Assembly (NCBI GenBank): GCA_009924895.1
Contig: RFQR01000002.1
Coordinates: forward strand, 1,368 to 65,367
Source of the DNA: a bacterium
GTDB taxonomy: Bacteria; Patescibacteriota; Minisyncoccia; Phycocordibacterales; UBA2100
Reading direction: 5' to 3'
Length of the DNA: 64,000 nucleotides
Shown one piece after another: positions 21,866-55,756 of this stretch. Every line of letters starts with the position of its first letter. Position 1 is the first letter of the stretch. Below the pieces are notes generated by a model. The model saw nothing but the letters and a program-made list of their open reading frames with translations. It was not told the DNA's origin and did not search any database. A program made the position numbers and the translations under genes.

Positions 21866-22546
21866 TTAAATGACTCTACTACCTTGATATTTTAATCTAA
21901 AAAATCCGCGTATGCCAAATAATGTGCGATATATGATAAAACCAATATTTTCCAAACGATTCAAAAAAGAATTTCTTTCCACTTTTTCAAAGTATGTAAT
22001 AGTATCAACCAAACGCGGATTTTTAATTCTAGATGATGTTAATAAAGGAATTGCTGTTGCTAAATTCGGACCGATAAAATGCCAAGAATCATGGAAGGCT
22101 AAAAATCCACCGTTCATTACTTTTGAAAACCATAAATTAAAGTCTAATTTAACAAAACTATATTCATGAGCACCATCAATAAAAGCAAATTCAATCTTTT
22201 GGTTAAAATTTTTCGCCGCATTTTCGGATGTATCTCTTACAGGCTCAACATATTCAGCTACTCCGGCCTTGTTTATATTTTGTTTAAATTCTTCAAATGT
22301 ATCAACTTTGCCGAACATTTTTTGATGTTCGGAGGAGCCGATGTGTGGATCAACGGCAAAAATTTTAACTTTATTCGCATCTCTAGAGCCGTTCCCAAGA
22401 CAAATAGTAGATTTTCCTTTCCACGAACCAACTTCTACGATTACATTTCCAGTTTTGATTTTCTTTGCAATGTTATACAAAGAAAGGCCCTCGGCCTCTG
22501 TCAACCACCCGCCAACATTTTCAGTAGCTTTATTAAAATCAAACAT
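21866..22546 (-). CDS. class I SAM-dependent methyltransferase (O-methyltransferase / Methyltransf_24-like)
   Basis: VIVEVGSWKGKST (GxGxG-like) and FAFIDGAHEY motifs. The gene is AT-rich relative to its neighbours. Confidence 0.7.
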   Translation of the reverse strand: MFDFNKATENVGGWLTEAEGLSLYNIAKKIKTGNVIVEVGSWKGKSTICLGNGSRDANKVKIFAVDPHIGSSEHQKMFGKVDTFEEFKQNINKAGVAEYVEPVRDTSENAAKNFNQKIEFAFIDGAHEYSFVKLDFNLWFSKVMNGGFLAFHDSWHFIGPNLATAIPLLTSSRIKNPRLVDTITYFEKVERNSFLNRLENIGFIIYRTLFGIRGFFRLKYQGSRVI

Positions 22547-22626
22547 ATGATTAAAAAATTTCTTTTGCCCTTAAAAAATATGATTCGAGCCGATTTGTTT
22601 TCAGGTTCTTTGGCAGTTTGGAATGT

Positions 22627-22734
22627 GCGCGGCGGAGCCGCTCATTTTTGCCTCGCCCGACCCGAGCCGCGCGAAGCGCGGCGAGGGCTGAATTCAGTTC
22701 GAGCTATTTTAATAATACACCGCCAGTTGGAATT
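22627..22734. repeat. right inverted repeat (IR-A') of the methyltransferase cassette
   Basis: Reverse complement of 21731..21830. Abuts IR-B directly. Confidence 0.8.
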
Positions 22735-22829
22735 TTTCAAGCAAGTGCCGTTCGCCTCGCGGCGGCTTTGCCGCCTCTCGGCAAGGATTTCAAATGGTTT
22801 TTTGGCCGAAAACGAAATGCATTTATCAA
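22733..22829. repeat. left inverted repeat (IR-B) upstream of the serine recombinase gene
   Basis: ccagttggaatttttcaagcaagtgccgttcgcctcgcggcggctttgccgcc... is the reverse complement of 24226..24332, with about four mismatches in ~100 bp. Confidence 0.85.
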
Positions 22830-22862
22830 TAAGGGCAAAAGAAATTTTTTAATCCTAATCTT

Positions 22863-24386
22863 ATGAAATACATACTTTATGCAAGAAAATCTACCGAGAG
22901 TGAGGAACGTCAAATTTTGAGTATTGAAGCCCAAATTTCCGAATTAAAAGAATTTGCCGCCAAAGAAAAACTTGAAATTGTTGCTTCGCTTTGCGAAGCC
23001 CAAACTGCCAAAGAACCTGGGCGAACGAAGTTCGCCGAAATGTTGTCATTTCTGCAAGCCGGAAAAGCTGACGGAATTTTGAGCTGGCATCCGGATCGTC
23101 TCGCCCGAAATTCCATAGACGGCGGACAAATTGTCTATTTGCTGGACACAGGAATAATTAAAGATTTGAAATTTCCGACATTTTGGTTTGACAATACACC
23201 GCAAGGAAAATTTATGTTGAACATTGCCTTTGGGCAAAGCAAATACTACATAGACAACTTGAGCGAGAATATTCGCCGAGGTCATCGCGCAAAACTTCGC
23301 AGGGGCGTATTCCCCGGCTTTGCTCCACTTGGCTATCTCAACAATCATCGCACTCGCGATATTGATATTGACCCAGAAAAATCTTCGCTAGTCCGAAAAG
23401 GTTTCGAGCTATACGCAACTGGCAAATACACCCTGAAGCAAATCGCGAGAGCGTTAAAAGATATTGGCCTCCGGAGTTACAAAGGCAATGTTCTTTCTGT
23501 TTCCTGTGCACAGAGACTTCTTCAAAATCATTTCTATTACGGAATTTTCAAATTTAAGGGCGAGACGTATCAGGGAATGCACGAGCCGTTAATTTCAAAG
23601 AAACTTTTTGATAAATGCCAAGAAGTTATGAAATCTCGCGGACATATCAAAACACGCAAAGCCGAGAAAACTTTTCCGTTTCGTGGATTATTCGCTTGCG
23701 GAGAGTGCGGCTGTGCTATTACTGCCGAAACTCAAAAGGGCCATAACTATTACAGATGTACGAAAAAGAAGACCGTTTGCTCGCAAAAATATGTCCGAGA
23801 GGAAGCACTGACCGAACAGGTGAAAAGTTTTCTTCAAAAAGTTTCTTTACCGAGCCAAGATGCTGAAAAGGTTTTGCGCGAGCTAGACAAAGACGAGCAG
23901 AAAGCAATAATGAGTAGCCGAGAAATTTTGCAAAATCTCAAAAGTGAAATTGTCGAAATCAGCACAAAGTTGGATAAATTGCTTTCTGCGTATCTCGACG
24001 AGATAGTTTCAGCCGATGAGTACGCCGCGCAAAAAGAGAAACTGCTCGCGCGAAAGGTCGAGTGTACTGAAGAAATCGGCGAAGTTGAGAACAAAAGTGT
24101 GTCTTGGCTCGAACCGGCTCGTGCGTTTGTAAAATCCTTAAATCAAGCTGAAAATCTTGTCCAGTCTGGGGATAAAGCAGAAATGACAACATTTCTAAAA
24201 CAAATCGGCTCGAATCATATTTTGTTTGATAAATGCATTTCGTTTTCGGCCAAAAAACCCTTTGAAATTCTTGCCGAGCGGCGGCAAAGCCGCCGCGAGG
24301 CGAACGGCACTTGCTTGAAAAATTCCAACTGGCGGAGAGGGAGGGATTCGAACCCTCGAGACAATTTTACTCGCCTAACACGTTAG
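22863..24386 (+). CDS. large serine recombinase (resolvase catalytic domain, recombinase domain, zinc ribbon, coiled coil)
   Basis: N-terminal YARKSTESEERQ...S...DRLAR catalytic motifs. Cys-rich ribbon CGECGC...YYRC. Coiled-coil C-terminus. The ORF runs into the adjacent tRNA-Ser, so the true stop may lie there. Confidence 0.85.
   Translation: MKYILYARKSTESEERQILSIEAQISELKEFAAKEKLEIVASLCEAQTAKEPGRTKFAEMLSFLQAGKADGILSWHPDRLARNSIDGGQIVYLLDTGIIKDLKFPTFWFDNTPQGKFMLNIAFGQSKYYIDNLSENIRRGHRAKLRRGVFPGFAPLGYLNNHRTRDIDIDPEKSSLVRKGFELYATGKYTLKQIARALKDIGLRSYKGNVLSVSCAQRLLQNHFYYGIFKFKGETYQGMHEPLISKKLFDKCQEVMKSRGHIKTRKAEKTFPFRGLFACGECGCAITAETQKGHNYYRCTKKKTVCSQKYVREEALTEQVKSFLQKVSLPSQDAEKVLRELDKDEQKAIMSSREILQNLKSEIVEISTKLDKLLSAYLDEIVSADEYAAQKEKLLARKVECTEEIGEVENKSVSWLEPARAFVKSLNQAENLVQSGDKAEMTTFLKQIGSNHILFDKCISFSAKKPFEILAERRQSRREANGTCLKNSNWRRGRDSNPRDNFTRLTR
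24226..24332. repeat. right inverted repeat (IR-B') inside the recombinase 3' coding region, ending at the CCA end of tRNA-Ser
   Basis: Reverse complement of 22733..22829. Its last 3 nt overlap the encoded CCA of tRNA-Ser. Confidence 0.85.
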
Positions 24387-24421
24387 CACCGTGCCGCCTT
24401 CGACCGCTCGGCCACCTCTCC
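24330..24421 (-). tRNA. tRNA-Ser (GCU), class II with long variable arm, CCA encoded
   Basis: Reverse complement ggagaggtggccgagcggtcgaaggcggcacggtGCTaacgtgt...gagggttcgaatccctccctctccgcca. Confidence 0.85.
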
Positions 24422-24490
24422 GTGCAAAGTAGCGTATCATTTTTTGCTCTTTTTCCCAAAAAATCGTATTATCTAAGCGTCTGCTAGGAA

Positions 24491-24563
24491 GGCCCTATCG
24501 TCTAGGGGTTAGGACAGCGCCTTTTCAAGGCGTTAACCCGGGTTCGAGTCCCGGTAGGGTCAC
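24491..24563 (+). tRNA. tRNA-Glu (UUC)
   Basis: ggccctatcgtctaggggttaggacagcgccttTTCaaggcgttaacccgggttcgagtcccggtagggtca. Resembles canonical bacterial tRNA-Glu. Confidence 0.85.
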
Positions 24564-24591
24564 AAAATAGAACTTCGTCCAATGAAAGGAC

Positions 24592-24636
24592 GGAACGCAC
24601 GCTCGCATGGGGCGAGCGTGCGTTCCGCTCTTTCTT
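24592..24636 (+). terminator. intrinsic terminator (15-bp GC-rich hairpin ggaacgcacgctcgc-atgg-ggcgagcgtgcgttcc plus T-rich tail)
   Basis: Perfect hairpin 29 nt downstream of tRNA-Glu. Confidence 0.65.
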
Positions 24637-47753: not shown

Positions 47754-50249
47754 ATGGCACGAAAATCCGCTGCGCCAACACCAAGCCCTGCCCCTGAAAC
47801 AGCGCCGCAAACGGGTGTTGTCGCTCGTTCAATTACCTCTGAAATGCGCGAGTCATACCTCGACTATGCGATGTCGGTTATTACAGCGCGCGCGCTTCCC
47901 GACGTGCGTGACGGCTTAAAGCCGGTGCACCGCCGCATTCTTTTCATGATGAACAAGCTCGGCCTCACCGCTGGCGGTAAGACACGCAAGTCCGCAACGG
48001 TTGTGGGTGAAGTTATGGGAAAGCTCCATCCGCACGGTGATATGGCGATTTACGATGCGCTTGCAAAAATGGCGCAGGATTTTTCGATGCGCTATCCGCT
48101 TATCATCGGGCAAGGAAACTTTGGTTCTATCGACGGTGATAACCCCGCAGCGATGCGCTATACAGAAGCAAAAATGTCACGCCTCGGTAGTGAGATGCTT
48201 CGTGATATTGAAAAAGAGACGGTAAACTTCTTGCCCAACTACGACAATACCGAAGAGGAGCCGCATGTCTTGCCGACTGCGGTGCCAAACCTTCTCTTGA
48301 ACGGCACGCTTGGTATTGCGGTGGGCATGGCGACTAATGTACCGCCGCATAACTTGCGCGAAGTCTGTGCCGCCACAGTGCATCTTATTGATGATCCTAA
48401 AGCGACAACTGAAGACCTTTTGCAGCATGTGCAAGGGCCTGATTTTCCGACAGGCTGTATTGCATTTAATCAGAAAGATTTGGCACATGCCTACGCTACG
48501 GGGCGCGGTCCTGTTGTTGTGCGCGGCGAGACAGAGATAGTAGAAGGAAAAAAAGAAGACTACTCAATCATCATCACGTCGATCCCATATCGCGTAAACA
48601 AAGCAGATCTTCTCACGCGCATTGCAGATTTGGTACATGAGAAAAAGCTCGAAGGCATCCGCGACGTTCGCGACGAATCGGCAAAAGATATTCGCGTTGT
48701 GATTGAGCTTAAGAACAATGCTAATCCACAGACGGTTCTAAACTTTCTGTACAAACACACGCAGCTCGAGGAGACATTTCACTACAACGTCGTGGCGCTT
48801 GTCGACGGTGTGCCGCAGACCCTGTCACTCAAAGCTATTCTTGAAAACTTTATAGCCCACCGCAAAGAAGTAGTGACCCGTCGCACGAAATTCGACCTCA
48901 CCAAAGCACAGGCACGCGAGCACATTTTGCTTGGTCTCAAGAAAGCGCTCGATCACATTGACGAAATAATCGCGCTCATTAAGAAGTCGAAAACAGTCGA
49001 CGAAGCCCGTATGGGCCTCATGACAAAGTTCAAGTTCTCCGAGATTCAGGCGAATGCAATCCTTGACATGCGCCTCCAGAAACTTGCAGGCCTCGAGCGC
49101 AAGAAAATAGAGGATGAATTGAAAGAGGTGCAGGCTCTTATCGAATACCTCCAGACGCTTCTCAAGAGCGAAAAAAAGATGATGGATCTTATCAAAAAAG
49201 AGATTGGAGAGATTTCTGAGAAGTACGGCGATGACCGTCGGACAAAAATCGTAAAGCGTGGCGCACAGATCTTGAACGCCGAAGATTTAATTGCTGACGA
49301 GGAGAGTGTGCTGGTTCTCACCAAGGGGGGTTATATCAAACGCACCAATCCATCCGAATACCGTAAGCAAAAGCGCGGCGGAGTGGGTGTTGTTGATCTT
49401 GATACGAAAGATGAAGACTTTGTTACGCATTTTGTGACAGCCTCTGCTCATTGCGACATGCTCTTTTTCTCCGATCGAGGTAAGGCATATCAGATCAAGA
49501 TGTACGAATTACCAGAGGGAAAGCGTGCGACGAAAGGTAAGTCAATCATGAATTTTATTTCGCTCGAACAAGGCGAAACCATCACCTCGATTCTCCCCAT
49601 GCCGAAAGAGGCAAAAGAGACAGCAGGACTCTCCCTTATGCTCGCGACACGACAGGGGACCGTGAAGAAAACGTCTGCTGCCGCATTTAAAGAAGTACGC
49701 CGCTCAGGGCTTATCGCAATCACGCTCGACAAAGGCGACTCGCTTATTTCTGCGCAGTTTGTTCGCAAAGGGGATGATTTTATTTTGGTAACCACCGAAG
49801 GGCAATCGATTCGATTTGCAGAGGATGAGGTGCGCGAAATGGGACGACAGGCGGGCGGCGTGCGTGGTATGAAGCTCGATAAGAATGATGCGATTGTGGG
49901 TGGCGGTGTTATTCCAAAAGATGCAGAGGATGCCGATCTTCTTGTTGTTTCTTCGACAGGCTACGGAAAAAAGACATCACTTTCTGAATACAAGACACAA
50001 GGCAGGGGTGGTAGTGGCATTAAGACCATGCAAATTACGGCAAAAACCAGAGAGCTCGTCGGTGCTGCGGTTATTAAAGAAAAAGGGTGCGAAATTGTTG
50101 CGATGTCAAAGAAAAGTCAGACGATTCGTACGAGTGTTGACGAATTGCCAACGCTTTCCCGCGCGACACAAGGTGTTCGCGTCATGAAACTGTACGAAGG
50201 AGACAGTGTTGCCTCGTTCGTGATATTTGAGGGTGGTAGCGAAGAATAG
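47754..50249 (+). CDS. gyrA: DNA gyrase subunit A (topoisomerase IV ParC not strictly excluded)
   Basis: N-terminal LDYAMSVI..RALPDVRDGLKPVHRR, active-site region, C-terminal beta-pinwheel repeats. Confidence 0.9.
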   Translation: MARKSAAPTPSPAPETAPQTGVVARSITSEMRESYLDYAMSVITARALPDVRDGLKPVHRRILFMMNKLGLTAGGKTRKSATVVGEVMGKLHPHGDMAIYDALAKMAQDFSMRYPLIIGQGNFGSIDGDNPAAMRYTEAKMSRLGSEMLRDIEKETVNFLPNYDNTEEEPHVLPTAVPNLLLNGTLGIAVGMATNVPPHNLREVCAATVHLIDDPKATTEDLLQHVQGPDFPTGCIAFNQKDLAHAYATGRGPVVVRGETEIVEGKKEDYSIIITSIPYRVNKADLLTRIADLVHEKKLEGIRDVRDESAKDIRVVIELKNNANPQTVLNFLYKHTQLEETFHYNVVALVDGVPQTLSLKAILENFIAHRKEVVTRRTKFDLTKAQAREHILLGLKKALDHIDEIIALIKKSKTVDEARMGLMTKFKFSEIQANAILDMRLQKLAGLERKKIEDELKEVQALIEYLQTLLKSEKKMMDLIKKEIGEISEKYGDDRRTKIVKRGAQILNAEDLIADEESVLVLTKGGYIKRTNPSEYRKQKRGGVGVVDLDTKDEDFVTHFVTASAHCDMLFFSDRGKAYQIKMYELPEGKRATKGKSIMNFISLEQGETITSILPMPKEAKETAGLSLMLATRQGTVKKTSAAAFKEVRRSGLIAITLDKGDSLISAQFVRKGDDFILVTTEGQSIRFAEDEVREMGRQAGGVRGMKLDKNDAIVGGGVIPKDAEDADLLVVSSTGYGKKTSLSEYKTQGRGGSGIKTMQITAKTRELVGAAVIKEKGCEIVAMSKKSQTIRTSVDELPTLSRATQGVRVMKLYEGDSVASFVIFEGGSEE

Positions 50250-50327
50250 TTTTCCCCGGCTCTGTAAGTAGGGTACTCACCGTGCCGTATAATCGATTCA
50301 TGTCCAGCCGTAATGTAGTGACGCTTT

Positions 50328-50924
50328 TTGTGTATGCAAAAGACTGACTCAATACAGGAGCCGAATGACTTTCAAAGTGTCCAGTCTAGTACTGCTGGAT
50401 TTGCTCACCCACCACGCACTGTTGCTGCGATGCATATAGAGCTCGGCATGAAAGTTGCTGACTTTGGCTCAGGCTCTGGTGCCTACGCACTTTTGTTTGC
50501 CGACGCCGTAGGCCCGCAAGGGCGCGTATATGCAATCGATATTCAAAAAGACCTCTTACGACGCACGCACACGATGGCAGTGCAAAAAAATCTTCACAAC
50601 ATTGAAATTATTTGGGGTGATGTAGAACTTCCGCATGGTTCCAAGCTAGCCGACAAGCTTCTCGATCTCGTGCTTATCTCCAATCTCCTGTTTCAAGTCA
50701 CGGGTAAGGGAGAACTCATGAAAGAAGCACGGCGCGTGTTGAAATCAGGAGGTCGATTAGTGGTCGTGGACTGGTCGGACTCATTCGGCGGCTTAGGACC
50801 GCAGCCAGGAGACATTGTCACAGAAGAAAAAGCGCGCATCCTTGCACAGGCGCACGGATTTTTGTTTCAGAAATCGTTTGACGCGGGCGCTCATCATTAC
50901 GGTATGATATTCGATACGGTATGA
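50328..50924 (+). CDS. class I SAM-dependent methyltransferase
   Basis: Motif I VADFGSGSGAYA. Post-I acidic residue YAIDIQ. Confidence 0.65.
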   Translation: MCMQKTDSIQEPNDFQSVQSSTAGFAHPPRTVAAMHIELGMKVADFGSGSGAYALLFADAVGPQGRVYAIDIQKDLLRRTHTMAVQKNLHNIEIIWGDVELPHGSKLADKLLDLVLISNLLFQVTGKGELMKEARRVLKSGGRLVVVDWSDSFGGLGPQPGDIVTEEKARILAQAHGFLFQKSFDAGAHHYGMIFDTV

Positions 50925-52270
50925 AGAAGTCATCACCCTTTCAAATCATTGTTCTGTGTATTTTTGGCGCACTCGGAGTCGGCTCCATGATTGTTTTTGC
51001 GCTTTTTGTAAATGGCAATCAGACCGCACGCACGGGACCCGTCGTGATCTGGGGCACGCTTGACGGAAAAGTGTTTGAATCGGTGTTGAAGTACCTTTCC
51101 GAAGAAAATGAGGTCTATAAAGAAACAACGTATGTACAGAAGGGTGCCACTGATTTTCCCGACGTGCTTGCGCGAGCTCTCGCATCGGGTCAAGGACCAG
51201 ATCTTGTGCTTCTCAGCCAAGATCAGGCGTATCTGGAGGCGCCAAATATGCTCAGATTCCCTGAGTCCGAGATCTCCCCATCACAATTTACTGATATGTA
51301 CGTGTATTCAGCAGCACCGTTTGTAACTGCAGAGGGGGTTATGGCAATTCCTGTTATCGCTGATCCGCTCATTTTGTATTCAAACAAAGATTTACTCGCA
51401 GCAGCAGGATACTCGCTTCCGCCCAAATACTGGGATGAGCTTTTTGACATGGCGCGCGTTATTACGGGGTGCGGTGTAGCACGTGGTGGTACCGTCGGAT
51501 ACGTGACTGGCTGCGATCGCGATTCACTCTCAATTAAAAAAGCAACGATTGCGCTTGGCACCTACGATAATGTTGATCATGCCAAAGACATTCTGAGTAC
51601 CATCATTTTACAAAGTGGCGGAAGCATTACGCGTCGCGATGAGTCAGGGGCACTCATAAGTGCGCTCATTACACGAGGCAACCAGAGCACCTCGCCTACT
51701 GAGAGTGCACTGCGTTTCTACACCGAATTTTCGGACCCTTCAAAAGATGATTACAGCTGGAGCTCGGCGATGCGCGACTCCCGCTCGGCCTTTAGCGCTG
51801 GCGATCTTGCGCTCTATATCGGGTATGCGAGCGAGCGCTACCTTATTGCAAACGCAAATCCTAACCTGAATGTCGGCTATTCGTTTTTACCGCAGATACG
51901 CAATAAAAACAGCGTGATAACCGGCGCTCGAGTATACGGTCTCGCAATACCTCGGACGAGTACGAACCCAACTGGTGCTGCGCAAGTTGCGTATAATTTT
52001 TCGGATAGTTTTGCATCTCTCGTTACGGCAAACGCCTATGGTGTCGTATCAGCTCGTCGCGATGTTCTCTCACAAGGAGGGTCCAAGGTAGTTCCGTCGC
52101 TATTTGCTTCCTCGACCATCGTGAGTGCGTCGTGGATTGATCCTGATCCGCAAAAGACAGACGCTCTCTTTCGCGCTATGATTACTGATGTTGTGAGCGG
52201 CACGGTACGTCTCACCGAAGGCGCCTCCCGAGCTGATCAGCAACTAAAAGCTATACTTGATGTACCATGA
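50921..52270 (+). CDS. membrane-anchored extracellular solute-binding protein (family 1, MalE-like)
   Basis: N-terminal TM anchor, then a periplasmic-binding-protein-like alpha/beta region. Overlaps the upstream MTase stop (ATGA), which suggests co-transcription. Confidence 0.55.
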   Translation: MKKSSPFQIIVLCIFGALGVGSMIVFALFVNGNQTARTGPVVIWGTLDGKVFESVLKYLSEENEVYKETTYVQKGATDFPDVLARALASGQGPDLVLLSQDQAYLEAPNMLRFPESEISPSQFTDMYVYSAAPFVTAEGVMAIPVIADPLILYSNKDLLAAAGYSLPPKYWDELFDMARVITGCGVARGGTVGYVTGCDRDSLSIKKATIALGTYDNVDHAKDILSTIILQSGGSITRRDESGALISALITRGNQSTSPTESALRFYTEFSDPSKDDYSWSSAMRDSRSAFSAGDLALYIGYASERYLIANANPNLNVGYSFLPQIRNKNSVITGARVYGLAIPRTSTNPTGAAQVAYNFSDSFASLVTANAYGVVSARRDVLSQGGSKVVPSLFASSTIVSASWIDPDPQKTDALFRAMITDVVSGTVRLTEGASRADQQLKAILDVP

Positions 52271-52653
52271 ACCGAATACTCATTTTTCTTGTCATGATAG
52301 CCCCGATTGTTGCGTTTGCAGGAACGCAAGGCGGCAAATTCGAGAATCCATTGACACTAGAAGATTTTCGAGAGTTTGTAGCCGCTCTCATGAAGGTGGT
52401 CGTTATTTTCGGTATGCCACTTGTCGCGCTCGCACTGGTATATTCTGGTTTTTTGTTTGCAAAGGCGCGTGGCAACAGTAGGGATTTAGATACTGCAAAG
52501 AAAAATTTCAAAAATACTATCTACGGGGCCGTGCTTATCATGGGGGCATGGGTCTTTGCGATGGCGCTCTGGGGTACCGTAGGGCAGATTATTAATGGCG
52601 GAGGCGGGGGAAGTGCAACGCCGTCGCCTCCTGTGAGGACCATCAGTGCATAG
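52267..52653 (+). CDS. small secreted/membrane protein, paralog 1 of 5 (signal peptide plus two TM helices; VirB2/TrbC-pilin-like architecture)
   Basis: MNRILIFLVMIAPIVAFA signal, TM1 VVVIFGMPLVALALVYSGFLF, loop, TM2 IYGAVLIMGAWVFAMALWGTV. Gly-rich tail. Confidence 0.5.
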   Translation: MNRILIFLVMIAPIVAFAGTQGGKFENPLTLEDFREFVAALMKVVVIFGMPLVALALVYSGFLFAKARGNSRDLDTAKKNFKNTIYGAVLIMGAWVFAMALWGTVGQIINGGGGGSATPSPPVRTISA

Positions 52654-52667
52654 AACAAGATTATAGT

Positions 52668-52964
52668 ATGAATCGATTTTTCACGATGCTGGTGTTTCTC
52701 TTTCTTCCAACGCTTTCGTTTGCAGCAGGCAAGACCGTCATGGACATTGCCAAGATGATCACAACCTATATCAACATGGTGATTGCGCTCATGATTACGG
52801 CAGGCCTTGTTATATTTCTTTTTTCAGCGCTCAAAGGTTTTGGTTCATCGGGGGAAGGAAAGTCGGAATTTAAAAGAGTTCTTATTTGGGGTGTTATTGC
52901 GCTTTTTGTGATGGTATCAGTCTGGGGACTCGTCACGCTGATAAAAAACACGATAGCTATTTAA
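52668..52964 (+). CDS. small secreted/membrane protein, paralog 2 of 5
   Basis: MNRFFTMLVFLFLPTLSFAAG signal, TM1 MVIALMITAGLVIFLFSAL, loop GFGSSGEGK, TM2 LIWGVIALFVMVSVWGLVTLI. Confidence 0.5.
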   Translation: MNRFFTMLVFLFLPTLSFAAGKTVMDIAKMITTYINMVIALMITAGLVIFLFSALKGFGSSGEGKSEFKRVLIWGVIALFVMVSVWGLVTLIKNTIAI

Positions 52965-52969
52965 AATTC

Positions 52970-53344
52970 ATGAAACGCATACTTGCAGTTGCAATACTCG
53001 TACCAGAATTTGTCTGTGCGCAGTCGCTCTATCAGGTGTGGAATGTTGCAAACCTGTTTTCCGGTATCCTTATTGTTGTTTCATTTATTTTCTTTTTTGG
53101 TGGTTTTGCCCTCTACATAGCACGGCTTGGCCGTACCTACCGCTCAGAAGGAATCGACCTCATGCAATGGGGTGTTTCTTTTCTGTTTGTTTTTTTGGTG
53201 CTGAGCACCATTTCCCGATGGACGCTTCTGTACCCATGGGCGATTCCCTGGGTATTTGCGCTCCTCATCATCGGTCTTTTTATGGTCTATATCCTCCCTG
53301 AACTCATCGCGGGCGGTGGCGAAAAGAAGAAAGAACACGACTAG
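52970..53344 (+). CDS. small secreted/membrane protein, paralog 3 of 5 (divergent, Trp-rich)
   Basis: MKRILAVAILVPEFVCA signal, two or three TM helices. Start taken at the internal Met, 6 nt after the paralog-2 stop. Confidence 0.45.
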   Translation: MKRILAVAILVPEFVCAQSLYQVWNVANLFSGILIVVSFIFFFGGFALYIARLGRTYRSEGIDLMQWGVSFLFVFLVLSTISRWTLLYPWAIPWVFALLIIGLFMVYILPELIAGGGEKKKEHD

Positions 53345-53430
53345 TGCTTGTCCACAGAGCAGCTAAGTGTCCCTTGTGCCTCTTTTCTAATGGCGGTACC
53401 ATTAAATCATTAACGAAATAAACAGCATTT

Positions 53431-53820
53431 ATGTCTTTTAGAAAGATAACAGCTTCGGTTTCTGGTGTTGCGCTCTCTGCTCTGCCATTTATTGCTTTTG
53501 CACAGGCACCTTCTCTTAACCGCGGTATTACTGGAGTATTGTTGACATTGAACAATGCGCTCAACATGCTTATTGGCATTTTGATTACCGCGGCAATTGT
53601 TGTTTTCTTTTACGGATTAGTAAAGTATCTATGGTCGAATGCGGGTGAGGAGAAACAGAACGCCATCAAGATCATGGTGAATGGCGTTGTGGTTATATTC
53701 GTGATGGTATCTATTTGGGGGTTAGTTGCTCTTCTTCAATTCACTCTTGGTGTCAATGGTCGCCAAAACATTACGTTCCCAACAGGTGCTCCAGTAAACA
53801 GCACGCCTACACTTAACTAA
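53431..53820 (+). CDS. small secreted/membrane protein, paralog 4 of 5
   Basis: Signal ALSALPFIAFAQA, TM1 MLIGILITAAIVVFFYGLV, loop, TM2 MVNGVVVIFVMVSIWGLVALL. Confidence 0.5.
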   Translation: MSFRKITASVSGVALSALPFIAFAQAPSLNRGITGVLLTLNNALNMLIGILITAAIVVFFYGLVKYLWSNAGEEKQNAIKIMVNGVVVIFVMVSIWGLVALLQFTLGVNGRQNITFPTGAPVNSTPTLN

Positions 53821-53889
53821 CTCTTCAGGTTTTCAACAAAAACGCCAGGATGACCTAGCTTTTTTGTGTTGGTACGATAGGATTGCCTC

Positions 53890-54204
53890 ATGGTTCAAGG
53901 AGCGCAAGCTATTCGAGATGCGGCAATCACATACGTCATAGATCCGATTTTGATGCTCATGTTTTCACTTGGGTTCTTCTTTTTTGTGTTAGGTATCGTT
54001 GAATTTTTATGGAAAATGAAAGATGGGAAGGTAAGCGAAGAAGGAAAAGAACATATGAAATGGGGACTTCTCGGTATGGTCATCATGAGCAGTATATGGG
54101 GCATCATCGCGCTCATCGATAACTCTCTTGGTCTTAATTTGGGTAATCCGCGAAACCCGAACATCGACGCGTCTCAAATCCCGAGTCTCGAGCGGATTCG
54201 GTAG
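53890..54204 (+). CDS. small membrane protein, paralog 5 of 5
   Basis: TM1 ILMLMFSLGFFFFVLGIV, loop with KDGKVSEEGKEH, TM2 WGLLGMVIMSSIWGIIALI. Confidence 0.5.
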   Translation: MVQGAQAIRDAAITYVIDPILMLMFSLGFFFFVLGIVEFLWKMKDGKVSEEGKEHMKWGLLGMVIMSSIWGIIALIDNSLGLNLGNPRNPNIDASQIPSLERIR

Positions 54205-54213
54205 GAAAGATTG

Positions 54214-54294
54214 TGGGCGAGAGAGGACTTGCACCTCCACGTCTTCCGACATTAGCTCCTAAGGCTAACGCGTCTTCTATTTCGCCACTCGCCC
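54214..54294 (-). tRNA. tRNA-Leu (UAG)-like, class II, with non-canonical D-loop (no GG) and T-loop (UGCAAGU instead of UUCRANU). Possible pseudo-tRNA.
   Basis: Reverse complement gggcgagtggcgaaatagaagacgcgttagccttAGgagctaatgtcggaagacgtggaggtgcaagtcctctctcgccca. 7-bp acceptor, anticodon loop cuUAGga, long variable arm. Confidence 0.5.
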
Positions 54295-54329
54295 AGTGTG
54301 CGCGTACTGTACCATAACTTTTTTTCTTG

Positions 54330-54620
54330 TCGTAGGGACTGTTTGTCTTTCAGTCGGTAAGCTGTAATATTTTTCCCGTCGCAAAAATATTTAGTTTCCC
54401 CACGCCTCGCCCGTTTTTCCTACTGGAAAAACATGGCTCCGGCTCGGACTTGTAACAAAAAACATTCCGCAGGGACTGTTTTTCTTTCAAGTCCCCAATC
54501 TGTTCATTTTTTGTCGTCACAAAAAATGCCAGACTGGGCACGGCTCGCGGTTTTGCATTGCTGTTCAAAACAACGCTCCGCCTCGGACAATGTCAGAAAA
54601 CCTGCCGTAGGGCAGGTTGT
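54330..54620. repeat. ~134-bp tandem direct repeat, about 2.3 copies, between the two tRNA genes
   Basis: The unit starts (g/c)agggactgttt(g/t)tctttca(g/a)... and contains ...ttt(t)Scgtc(r)caaaaa(a)t...ctccgSctcggac.... Copies begin near 54333, 54467 and, partially, 54601. Confidence 0.6.
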
Positions 54621-54631
54621 TGTGTACATTG

Positions 54632-54704
54632 TCCGCCCACTAGGATTCGAACCTAGGACCGTCTCGTTAAGAGCGAGCTGCTCTACCAACTGAGCTATGG
54701 GCGG
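54632..54704 (-). tRNA. tRNA-Lys (CUU)
   Basis: Reverse complement ccgcccatagctcagttggtagagcagctcgctCTTaacgagacggtcctaggttcgaatcctagtgggcgga. Closely resembles canonical tRNA-Lys, but has C1:G72. Confidence 0.8.
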
Positions 54705-54796
54705 ATACTGGTGCATTGTACACAAAAAAAGCGTATTGGAAACCTTAGAATATTTGATTTAGAAAAAAAGTGAGGGCGCCCCAAGGGCGCCCTCAC

Positions 54797-55756
54797 TCAT
54801 TTTGTTTTCAAAATGAGAGATGACAGTGACTCGTCTTGGTGAATCCGTCGAATTGCTTGCGCCAGAAGTGGCGCGACAGATATCAGTACAAACTTTCCGT
54901 TTTTACCCGAGAGCTTTTCGGGAGTCAAAACAGTGTCGGTAAGAAATACTTGAGTAAATGCGCTTTTGCTCAGGTTGTCGAGCGCGTTACCTGAGAGTAT
55001 TCCATGTGTTGCATACGCAAAGATGCGTTTTGCTCCCGCTTTTTTTGCTGCCTCTGCATCGGCAATCATGGTGCCACCGGTATCTATCATGTCGTCAACA
55101 AAGAGAACGTCTTTGTTTTTGACACTACCAATGATTTGAATACGCTTGTCGACCATGCCCGGTGCGACGCGCCGCTTTGAGAAAATCACACAGTCATCTT
55201 GACCGAGATACTGTGCATATTGTAGCGCTCTCGCTGTCCCTCCTTTATCAGGAGATGCCACAACGAATGACTTGTTGAGCACTCTGTGAAGATACGGAAC
55301 AGCGGCATGCGAACTATACAGATGATCTGTTACCATGGGCTCAAAGTGCGCCGCTGTCGCTTCAGAGTGTAGGTCCAGCAATAGCGCGCGGTCAGCCCCG
55401 GTGAGTTTCAGGGTCTCAATGGCAGCTTTTGCCGCAACTGGTACGCGGGGTCTGTCTTTTCTGTCTTGGCGATTGTAACCAAGGTATGGAATAACCAAGG
55501 TCACACGCCCCGCTGATGCCATGCGCGCTGCTTTTCCAAGCAGCATCATTTCGAAAAAGTTTTCAGCTGGCGGCGGTGTTGAGTTGATGATAAAAACATC
55601 AGCTCCTCGCACATCAGCTTGCAACTCGATTCGAACTTCTCCATCGTTGAACCTCCCAACAATTGCCGGCGAAGGGTCAATGCTCAGGAGCTCAGCAATG
55701 CGTGGTACTAAGTGGTTGCTGGCATTTCCTGAAAAAAGGCGAATTTGTCTATTCAT
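54797..55756 (-). CDS. prs: ribose-phosphate pyrophosphokinase (PRPP synthetase)
   Basis: N-terminal RLFSGNASNHL. PRPP-binding loop VDDMIDTGGT. Divalent-cation site. Confidence 0.9.
   Translation of the reverse strand: MNRQIRLFSGNASNHLVPRIAELLSIDPSPAIVGRFNDGEVRIELQADVRGADVFIINSTPPPAENFFEMMLLGKAARMASAGRVTLVIPYLGYNRQDRKDRPRVPVAAKAAIETLKLTGADRALLLDLHSEATAAHFEPMVTDHLYSSHAAVPYLHRVLNKSFVVASPDKGGTARALQYAQYLGQDDCVIFSKRRVAPGMVDKRIQIIGSVKNKDVLFVDDMIDTGGTMIADAEAAKKAGAKRIFAYATHGILSGNALDNLSKSAFTQVFLTDTVLTPEKLSGKNGKFVLISVAPLLAQAIRRIHQDESLSSLILKTK

Follow-up and report, generated by a model that had tools for sequence, protein, structure and literature searches.

Five anciently diverged genes, very probably of the pilin family, form a fixed array in a conserved seven-gene cassette of Patescibacteria

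When several small membrane proteins are encoded in tandem, are they interchangeable versions of one protein, different parts of one structure, or products with another role altogether? We address this question for five small genes, here called p1 to p5 in their order along the forward (+) strand, that lie in a 64-kb stretch of Patescibacteria DNA from contig RFQR01000002.1 (the window). An earlier note on the same DNA had described them as a tandem array of VirB2/TrbC-pilin-like proteins. The answer developed below, and held with some reserve, is that they are different parts of one structure. In NCBI the five proteins have identical entries, NBV76772-NBV76776 (locus tags EBR66_01245-01260, on a 631-kb contig). 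The closest named relatives of the window proteins are from Candidatus Kaiserbacteria, and the DNA comes from a Kaiserbacteria-like metagenome-assembled genome of the Paceibacteria. Relatives' loci were found by an alignment scan with the binding protein encoded just upstream of p1, taking one genome per species. At least 495 relatives were found and the best 80 loci were analyzed, all of them from Patescibacteria and with binding proteins 34-48% identical to that of the window. For each of p1 to p5, the window protein and its counterparts in 38 distinct relatives make up a position group of 39 sequences.

The five proteins very probably belong to the T4SS_pilin family (PF18895) of the VirB2/TrbC superfamily, the pilins of type IV secretion systems (T4SSs); PF18895 is annotated as related to TrbC/VirB2 (Pfam). 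The p1 protein scores 31.6 bits against PF18895, above the gathering cut-off of 26.6, and the same family is the best Pfam match of p2, p4 and p5 and the second match of p3. When the members of the position groups were scored one by one (E < 1e-3), PF18895 was matched by all 39 sequences of the p1 group and by 36 of the 39 in the p4 group, and the p1 group also matched PF04956 (TrbC) in 32 of 39 cases (best E 9e-9), so that the earlier description of the array as VirB2/TrbC-pilin-like is borne out. Groups p2 to p5 are mutually homologous (hhalign probability 83-99.8%): p2, p3 and p5 align to the p4 group at 99.8%, 98.7% (E 3e-16) and 99.4%, and p2 and p4 match each other by blastp at 8e-18. 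The p1 group reaches at most 17.7% against the other groups; by these comparisons p1 is a separate, more TrbC-like subfamily, tied to p2-p5 only via the shared Pfam family. An AlphaFold2 model of p4 built with 62 homologs predicts a helical hairpin (residues 32-68 and 73-106) with block values of the predicted local distance difference test (pLDDT) of 83-93 in the hairpin and a mean of 70.9, a predicted fold that is compatible with the pilin family and not diagnostic of it. Type IV pilins are marked by a class III signal peptide, cleaved at G|F/M, and have only one hydrophobic helix, at the N-terminus. The window proteins do not fit this PilA-like pattern, having AxA-type signal peptides, two or three further helices and no Pfam N_methyl match.

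Are the five genes products of recent duplication, as the question of diverging duplicates left standing by the earlier note would imply, or old and separate lineages? Their mutual identity is 15-33%, and the mean local alignment scores between proteins at the same position in different genomes (191-311, with p4 the highest at 311) exceed those between different positions within a genome (38-146). Since same-position scores are the higher ones, the duplications predate the radiation of the clade, and nothing in the cross-position comparison points to recent duplication or to positions having exchanged sequence. Judged by these scores, p1 to p5 are five ancient orthologous groups in a fixed order, that is, anciently diverged paralogs rather than recent duplicates or shuffling variants. 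A search of the 64-kb window found no further pilin paralogs.

The genes themselves are secure. Their open reading frames (ORFs) lie consecutively on the + strand, as the earlier note had it, and the same five were called independently on the same genome assembled from another sample; moreover, with orthologs of all five in 38 distinct relatives they are far beyond chance ORFs, a reading that we dropped because their conservation rules against it. The first, p1 (52267-52653, +; 128 residues), is TrbC/VirB2-like, with a signal peptide (AFA|G cleavage) and two hydrophobic helices, and its start overlaps the stop of the binding-protein gene by a 4-nucleotide (nt) ATGA (52267-52270), an overlap that had been described correctly. 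It is followed by p2 (52668-52964, +; 98 residues), with a signal peptide, two helices and an SVWG motif, and by the divergent p3 (52970-53344, +; 124 residues from ATG 52970), whose mature part, after the signal peptide, holds three hydrophobic helices. The best-conserved paralog, p4 (53431-53820, +; 129 residues), has a signal peptide (AFA|Q), a helical hairpin and an SIWG motif, and p5 (53890-54204, +; 104 residues) has two helices and no signal peptide. The proteins thus measure 98-129 residues and the spacers 14, 5, 86 and 69 nt, which corrects the 98-152 residues and 6-90 nt given previously. A p3 of 152 residues starting from a TTG inside p2 was rejected: it would overlap p2 by 79 nt, and both the gene calls and the ortholog alignment support 124 residues. 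An in-frame TAG lies 9 nt upstream of the p5 ATG, so that p5 cannot be extended upstream, and a convergent tRNA-Leu gene lies directly 3' of it.

Topology, read here from hydropathy and hydrophobic-segment analysis, is less uniform than the shared signal peptide and two transmembrane helices that had been claimed for all five. A signal peptide with an AxA-type end followed by two hydrophobic helices is found in p1, p2 and p4. In p3 the same arrangement is extended by a third helix, its orthologs often having an extra C-terminal hydrophobic helix, and p5 lacks the signal peptide; exactly two hydrophobic segments are present in 39 of 39 sequences of the p5 group, and three in 37 of 39 in the p2 and p4 groups. 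A conserved W-G in the second helix, also claimed for the whole array, likewise holds for part of it: the p2, p4 and p5 groups keep the SIWG motif, p3 has the W without the WG, and the W-G of the window p1 is not kept in its orthologs, where the consensus is G-G and a conserved W stands seven residues earlier.

The five genes are the last part of a cassette that begins with a methyltransferase gene and a binding-protein gene and recurs in most of the 80 species-level loci. The earlier note had made its reading depend on the array being conserved in related genomes, and this is what was found. Five further contigs with p4 homologs have the methyltransferase, the binding protein and then four or five small genes, and one of them (L014) is from a relative that is only 40% identical and has other flanks. 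A phmmer search with the seven window proteins over 94 loci found the methyltransferase, the binding protein and p1 in 87, p2-, p4- and p5-type proteins in 86 and p3-type proteins in 76. The commonest architecture, found in 39 loci, is methyltransferase, binding protein, p1, p2, p3, p4 and p5, each position best matched by its own window counterpart; most of the others either break off at a contig end or show p2 under the label of p4, its closest paralog, and in more distant loci the methyltransferase, binding protein and p1 are followed by about 3-6 paralogs. The first five cassette genes overlap or nearly abut (median gaps -4, 4, 2 and 6 nt). Among loci with the canonical gene order, spacers within the cassette are at most 509 nt, and the spacer from gyrA to the methyltransferase gene ranges from 40 nt to 4.9 kb, with insertions there and none inside the cassette. 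Upstream of the cassette lies gyrA in 67 of the 80 loci; the downstream neighbors vary.

Several single loci add observations on the surroundings of the cassette. IS200-type (Y1_Tnp) transposase genes occur just upstream of the methyltransferase gene in L007 (2861-3529), L012 (6088-6753) and L014 (1681-2379); none lies within the cassette. In L002 (11280-12203, - strand), L015 (9656-10480) and L040 (9551-10363) the array is followed closely by a gene for another class I methyltransferase, a longer one. In L011 (10001-11340) there is a distant three-gene array of the pilin family without a binding protein or methyltransferase; it follows LemA and M48 peptidase genes and lies about 6 kb downstream of gyrB.

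The first cassette gene (50334-50924, +) encodes a class I S-adenosylmethionine (SAM)-dependent methyltransferase of 196 residues when read from ATG 50334, as in the gene call, the longest ORF starting from TTG 50328. Its Pfam matches are Methyltransf_31/11/25 and Ubie_methyltran, and among solved structures it comes closest to a generic SAM methyltransferase, 3dh0 (E 2.8e-15). It overlaps the next gene by a 4-nt ATGA, and a 4-nt overlap is present at this junction in 66% of relatives. That next gene (50921-52270, +; 449 residues) encodes a MalE-like (SBP_bac_1) solute-binding-type protein with an N-terminal transmembrane anchor and no lipobox, which scores 72.4 bits against PF01547 (cut-off 26; 8.6e-20), also matches PF13416 and, as a profile, matches sugar-binding proteins in the PDB at E ~1e-12. 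Neither a BPD_transp permease nor a matching ATP-binding cassette (ABC) ATPase was found within 10 kb of it or in the relatives' contigs. The anchor (residues 1-33; 50921-51020) has a mean top-residue frequency of 0.71 compared with 0.62 elsewhere in the protein; residues such as F7, Q8, L12, F15, G16 and F26 are each kept in 90% or more of 40 sequences, and F7, Q8, L12, F15 and F26 are invariant in a six-sequence alignment. Such conservation is unusual for a plain anchor and suggests that the anchor may make specific contacts within the membrane. The window protein also has an insertion of ~14 residues, CGVARGGTVGYVTG (residues ~184-200, ~51470-51530), near two cysteines, that is absent from five aligned orthologs.

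The spacer between p3 and p4 differs from the tight junctions before it: it is at least 54 nt long, with a median of 122 nt, in relatives with the canonical gene order. In an alignment of this spacer (53345-53430 in the window; loci L002-L094), three DNA blocks are conserved next to flanking proteins that are only ~40-45% identical. The first is a DnaA-box-like element (53348-53356, +) that reads TTGTCCACA in the window and TTATCCACA in most relatives. The other two form a sigma-70-like putative promoter of p4-p5 (53374-53402, +), with TTGTGC as its -35 element (53374-53379), a spacing of 17 nt and TACCAT as its -10 element (53397-53402). The arrangement T[A/G]TCC[A/C]CA, a gap, TTGNNN, 16-17 nt, TAnnAT and ~37 nt to the p4 start codon is found in 35 of 39 distinct spacers, the gap between box and -35 element being 17-19 nt in 29 of them and 7-8 nt in 6. 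The two gap classes are about one helical turn apart, as expected if a protein bound there has to be turned towards RNA polymerase. The part TTGNNN-16/17-TAnnAT, present in 35 of 39 spacers, occurs in 2.5% of random chunks, and the exact 9-mer TTATCCACA, present in 23 of 39 spacers, has 2 copies in the 457 kb of the loci outside them; within one mismatch it is found in 38 of 39 spacers, all but one on the + strand. Of the composite of box and promoter the 64-kb window has a single copy, and 1.0 Mb of loci has 70, only two of them on the opposite strand; 43 were verified to lie just upstream of p4, and most of the others lie at a similar offset from the binding-protein gene.

We conclude with good confidence that these motifs mark a p4-p5 promoter with an upstream factor site. 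That the factor is DnaA is a tentative proposal that we would not yet lean on; DnaA-box-like sites are not enriched in the window as a whole (17 compared with 11.6 expected). A generic promoter scan did not report the p4-p5 promoter, because TTGTGC matches only 3 of the 6 positions of TTGACA. No RNA family was assigned to the p3-p4 spacer in an Rfam scan of 50000-55000, whose only hits besides sub-threshold noise were the two tRNAs. We had also considered the motif as a terminator hairpin of p3 (CACA...TGTG followed by a T run), and rejected this on three grounds: in several loci the stem would have no more than ~4 bp, the letters themselves are conserved instead of co-varying, and the distances follow the helical turn. 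On gene spacing and motif conservation, the cassette is two predicted expression units, one of five tightly packed genes and one in which p4-p5 stand behind their own conserved promoter. The co-transcription with the binding protein and the methyltransferase that the earlier note had assumed for the whole array is therefore probable for p1-p3 only.

How might such a set of proteins work? The explanation that we lean towards is that p1-p5 assemble in a T4SS-dependent manner into a heteromeric pilus or conduit. Under this model p1-p4 would be inserted via Sec and cleaved by signal peptidase I after AxA, p5 would enter the membrane without cleavage, and all five would fold as a two-helix hairpin with a short charged cytoplasmic loop. 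A monoderm-type T4SS (VirB4, a VirB6-like protein and others), encoded elsewhere in the genome, would extract the subunits from the membrane, and these would build a heteromeric pilus or conduit for contact with the host cell. The own promoter would serve to produce p4, and perhaps p5, in larger amounts; because it has this promoter and is the most conserved, p4 is likely the major subunit, with minor or initiating roles likely for p1-p3. For the binding protein, a part in this membrane complex is probable, as a module for ligand binding, adhesion or sensing. As for the secretion system, Table S1 of PMC12102498 lists VirB4 in 8 of the 10 cassette-bearing assemblies looked up, all of them relatives, which makes the stand-alone array once suggested unlikely. 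VirB2-like genes lie near virB4 in only 1135 of 1948 assemblies, and detached pilin genes are thus common (PMC12102498).

Several results weigh against T4SS-dependent assembly into a pilus. Beyond p1 the PF18895 scores stay below the cut-off (p2 23.4, p4 24.4, p5 19.3 and p3 12.6 bits). The p1 and p4 profiles gave nothing meaningful against the PDB, no solved pilin being matched by sequence, and a Foldseek search of the p4 hairpin against the PDB returned generic hairpins only (best E-value 1.3). The window holds no VirB4, VirD4 or VirB6 gene, as had been stated: ten large or unassigned ORFs were scanned with Pfam, and the remaining large ORFs read as housekeeping genes from their translations and precomputed Pfam tables. 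Nor do the precomputed tables show T4SS genes next to the window, over 10 kb on its downstream side and ~1.4 kb on its upstream side, and in the 80 relatives a screen by eye of clustered large-ORF N-termini, as distinct from a profile search, showed no T4SS ATPase within 6 kb of the cassette. With gyrA upstream in 67 of the 80 loci, part of the synteny is simply inherited. To our knowledge, a pilus has never been seen for the T4SS_pilin family in any Paceibacterium. Finally, two of the ten relatives looked up in Table S1 are listed as VirB4-negative, both being scaffold-level assemblies, of 742 and 501 kb (PMC12102498).

An anchored binding protein and five hairpin proteins could instead form a surface or uptake-and-sensing assembly that needs no T4SS, for example for the capture of host-derived carbohydrates, in which the pilin-family fold has been re-used as a membrane scaffold and not as a filament. 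Such an assembly would account for the T4SS genes never found beside the cassette, the overlapping or nearly abutting binding-protein and p1 genes, the unusually conserved transmembrane anchor, the missing ABC permease or ATPase and the lack of a signal peptide in 39 of 39 sequences of the p5 group. We regard it as unlikely: a transporter made of VirB2-like hairpins is without precedent, the cassette has no energising component, orphan binding proteins are able to use transporters encoded elsewhere, and most relatives (8 of the 10 looked up in that table) are listed with VirB4. We would call improbable a bolder form of the idea, a self-contained surface device in which a five-subunit VirB2-like filament or channel is coupled via the anchor to a carbohydrate-binding head that captures host molecules, with DnaA setting the output of the major subunits, perhaps without a canonical T4SS; if it were true, pilus production would be tied to replication or nutritional state.

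The paralogs could also be alternative major pilins that widen the host range or vary the surface, as has been proposed for arrays in Patescibacteria (PMC12102498), and both the low mutual identity of 15-33% and a copy number after p1 of about 3 to 6 in more distant relatives would suit such interchangeable variants. Against this stand the separate orthology of each position across 38 relatives, the lack of any trace of recent duplication or of exchange between positions, structural differences that are fixed (p5 without a signal peptide, p3 with its extra helix, p1 TrbC-like), and a gene order and promoter placement that are fixed as well, which together leave little room for this view. The suggestion of the earlier note that the genes might encode membrane-active peptides, in the sense of holins, bacteriocins, immunity proteins or toxin-like small proteins, found no support. 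It draws on the small size and two hydrophobic helices of the proteins and on a weak match of p5 to the NCBIfam TsaT toxin (E 0.005; 17 bits against a cut-off of 80), and it has to contend with the core chromosomal position (gyrA adjoining in 67 of 80 relatives), an ancient orthology, a consistent Pfam assignment to the pilin family and the absence of any phage, lysis or bacteriocin-export gene nearby; we consider it very improbable indeed.

Some features of the window and its flank lie outside the cassette. The region 21900-24600 has a low GC content (0.41 compared with about 0.48) and three ORFs and is possibly a small integrated element; the N-terminus of its 507-residue ORF is serine-recombinase-like, and this ORF ends ~60 nt before the 3' end of a tRNA-Ser gene (the gene overlaps its last ~57 nt), with a tRNA-Glu gene nearby. 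The - strand carries at 54768-54798 a strong hairpin (14 bp, GC-rich, with a T run) that stands immediately before the start codon of the phosphoribosyl pyrophosphate synthetase gene (54797-54795, -) and overlaps it by 3 nt; it lies downstream of a - strand tRNA-Lys gene and could be the terminator of an upstream - strand transcript or a leader element. On the opposite strand, gyrB (L096 4682-6727) lies ~9 kb past the 3' end of the window, and no dnaA was seen in the stretch read.

Among known systems, the classical pilins VirB2 and TrbC belong to diderm systems, in which a single gene lies inside the T4SS operon and the product is cyclised or otherwise processed. The window proteins resemble VirB2 (the Agrobacterium T-pilin) and TrbC (RP4; PF04956) in their signal peptide, two hydrophobic helices and short charged loop, and differ from them in that neither such a processing enzyme nor such an operon context was seen at the cassette. 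Binding proteins are known from T4SS-related sensing: PrgZ of pCF10 is an OppA-like pheromone receptor, and ChvE of Agrobacterium is the sugar sensor for VirA. The cassette likewise has an orphan binding-type protein, although its family differs, no signalling partner is evident and the link consists in the overlap with a pilin gene. In Bartonella and Anaplasma, multi-copy divergent VirB2 paralogs in tandem are read as antigenic or host-range variants (cited in PMC12102498); the window array shares with them the several divergent tandem genes, whereas its positional orthology argues for distinct, co-required roles.

The closest counterparts are the VirB2-like arrays of Patescibacteria themselves, of which 441, with 2-11 genes and a mean identity of 25%, are known from 383 assemblies (PMC12102498). 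In Southlakia epibionticum ML1 a six-gene array lies inside the T4SS cluster and is essential (Wang et al. 2023, PMC10633639); a 2025 review names this as the sole exception to the rule that monoderm T4SSs lack VirB2 (PMC12857230). The array of p1-p5 belongs to this already described class of tandem divergent VirB2-like pilins: it shares the PF18895 and PF04956 matches, the tandem genes of low identity, the monoderm ultra-small organism and the predicted two-helix hairpin. Unlike those arrays, it is not in or near a virB4 cluster, it lies downstream of gyrA in a cassette with a MalE-like protein and a methyltransferase, and it consists of five fixed positional orthologs with an internal promoter and DnaA-box-like site. 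A binding protein or relevant methyltransferase accompanying VirB2-like arrays is unmentioned in PMC12102498, PMC10633639 and the 2025 review, and searches of open-access full text found none. What is new, in the sense that we did not find it described in the open-access literature, is the fixed five-subunit set, its coupling to an orphan MalE-like protein and a methyltransferase, and the putative phased promoter with its DnaA-box-like site.

By what means Patescibacteria draw on host cells for their needs is an open question, and in the one species tested the T4SS and its unusual pilin arrays are essential (PMC10633639). For a large clade of Paceibacteria, the fixed set of five different subunits described here favors a heteromeric structure over antigenic variation. 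The cassette also names candidate partners of such a structure, an anchored sugar-binding-type protein and a methyltransferase, and the predicted promoter with its DnaA-box-like operator would make its regulation testable.

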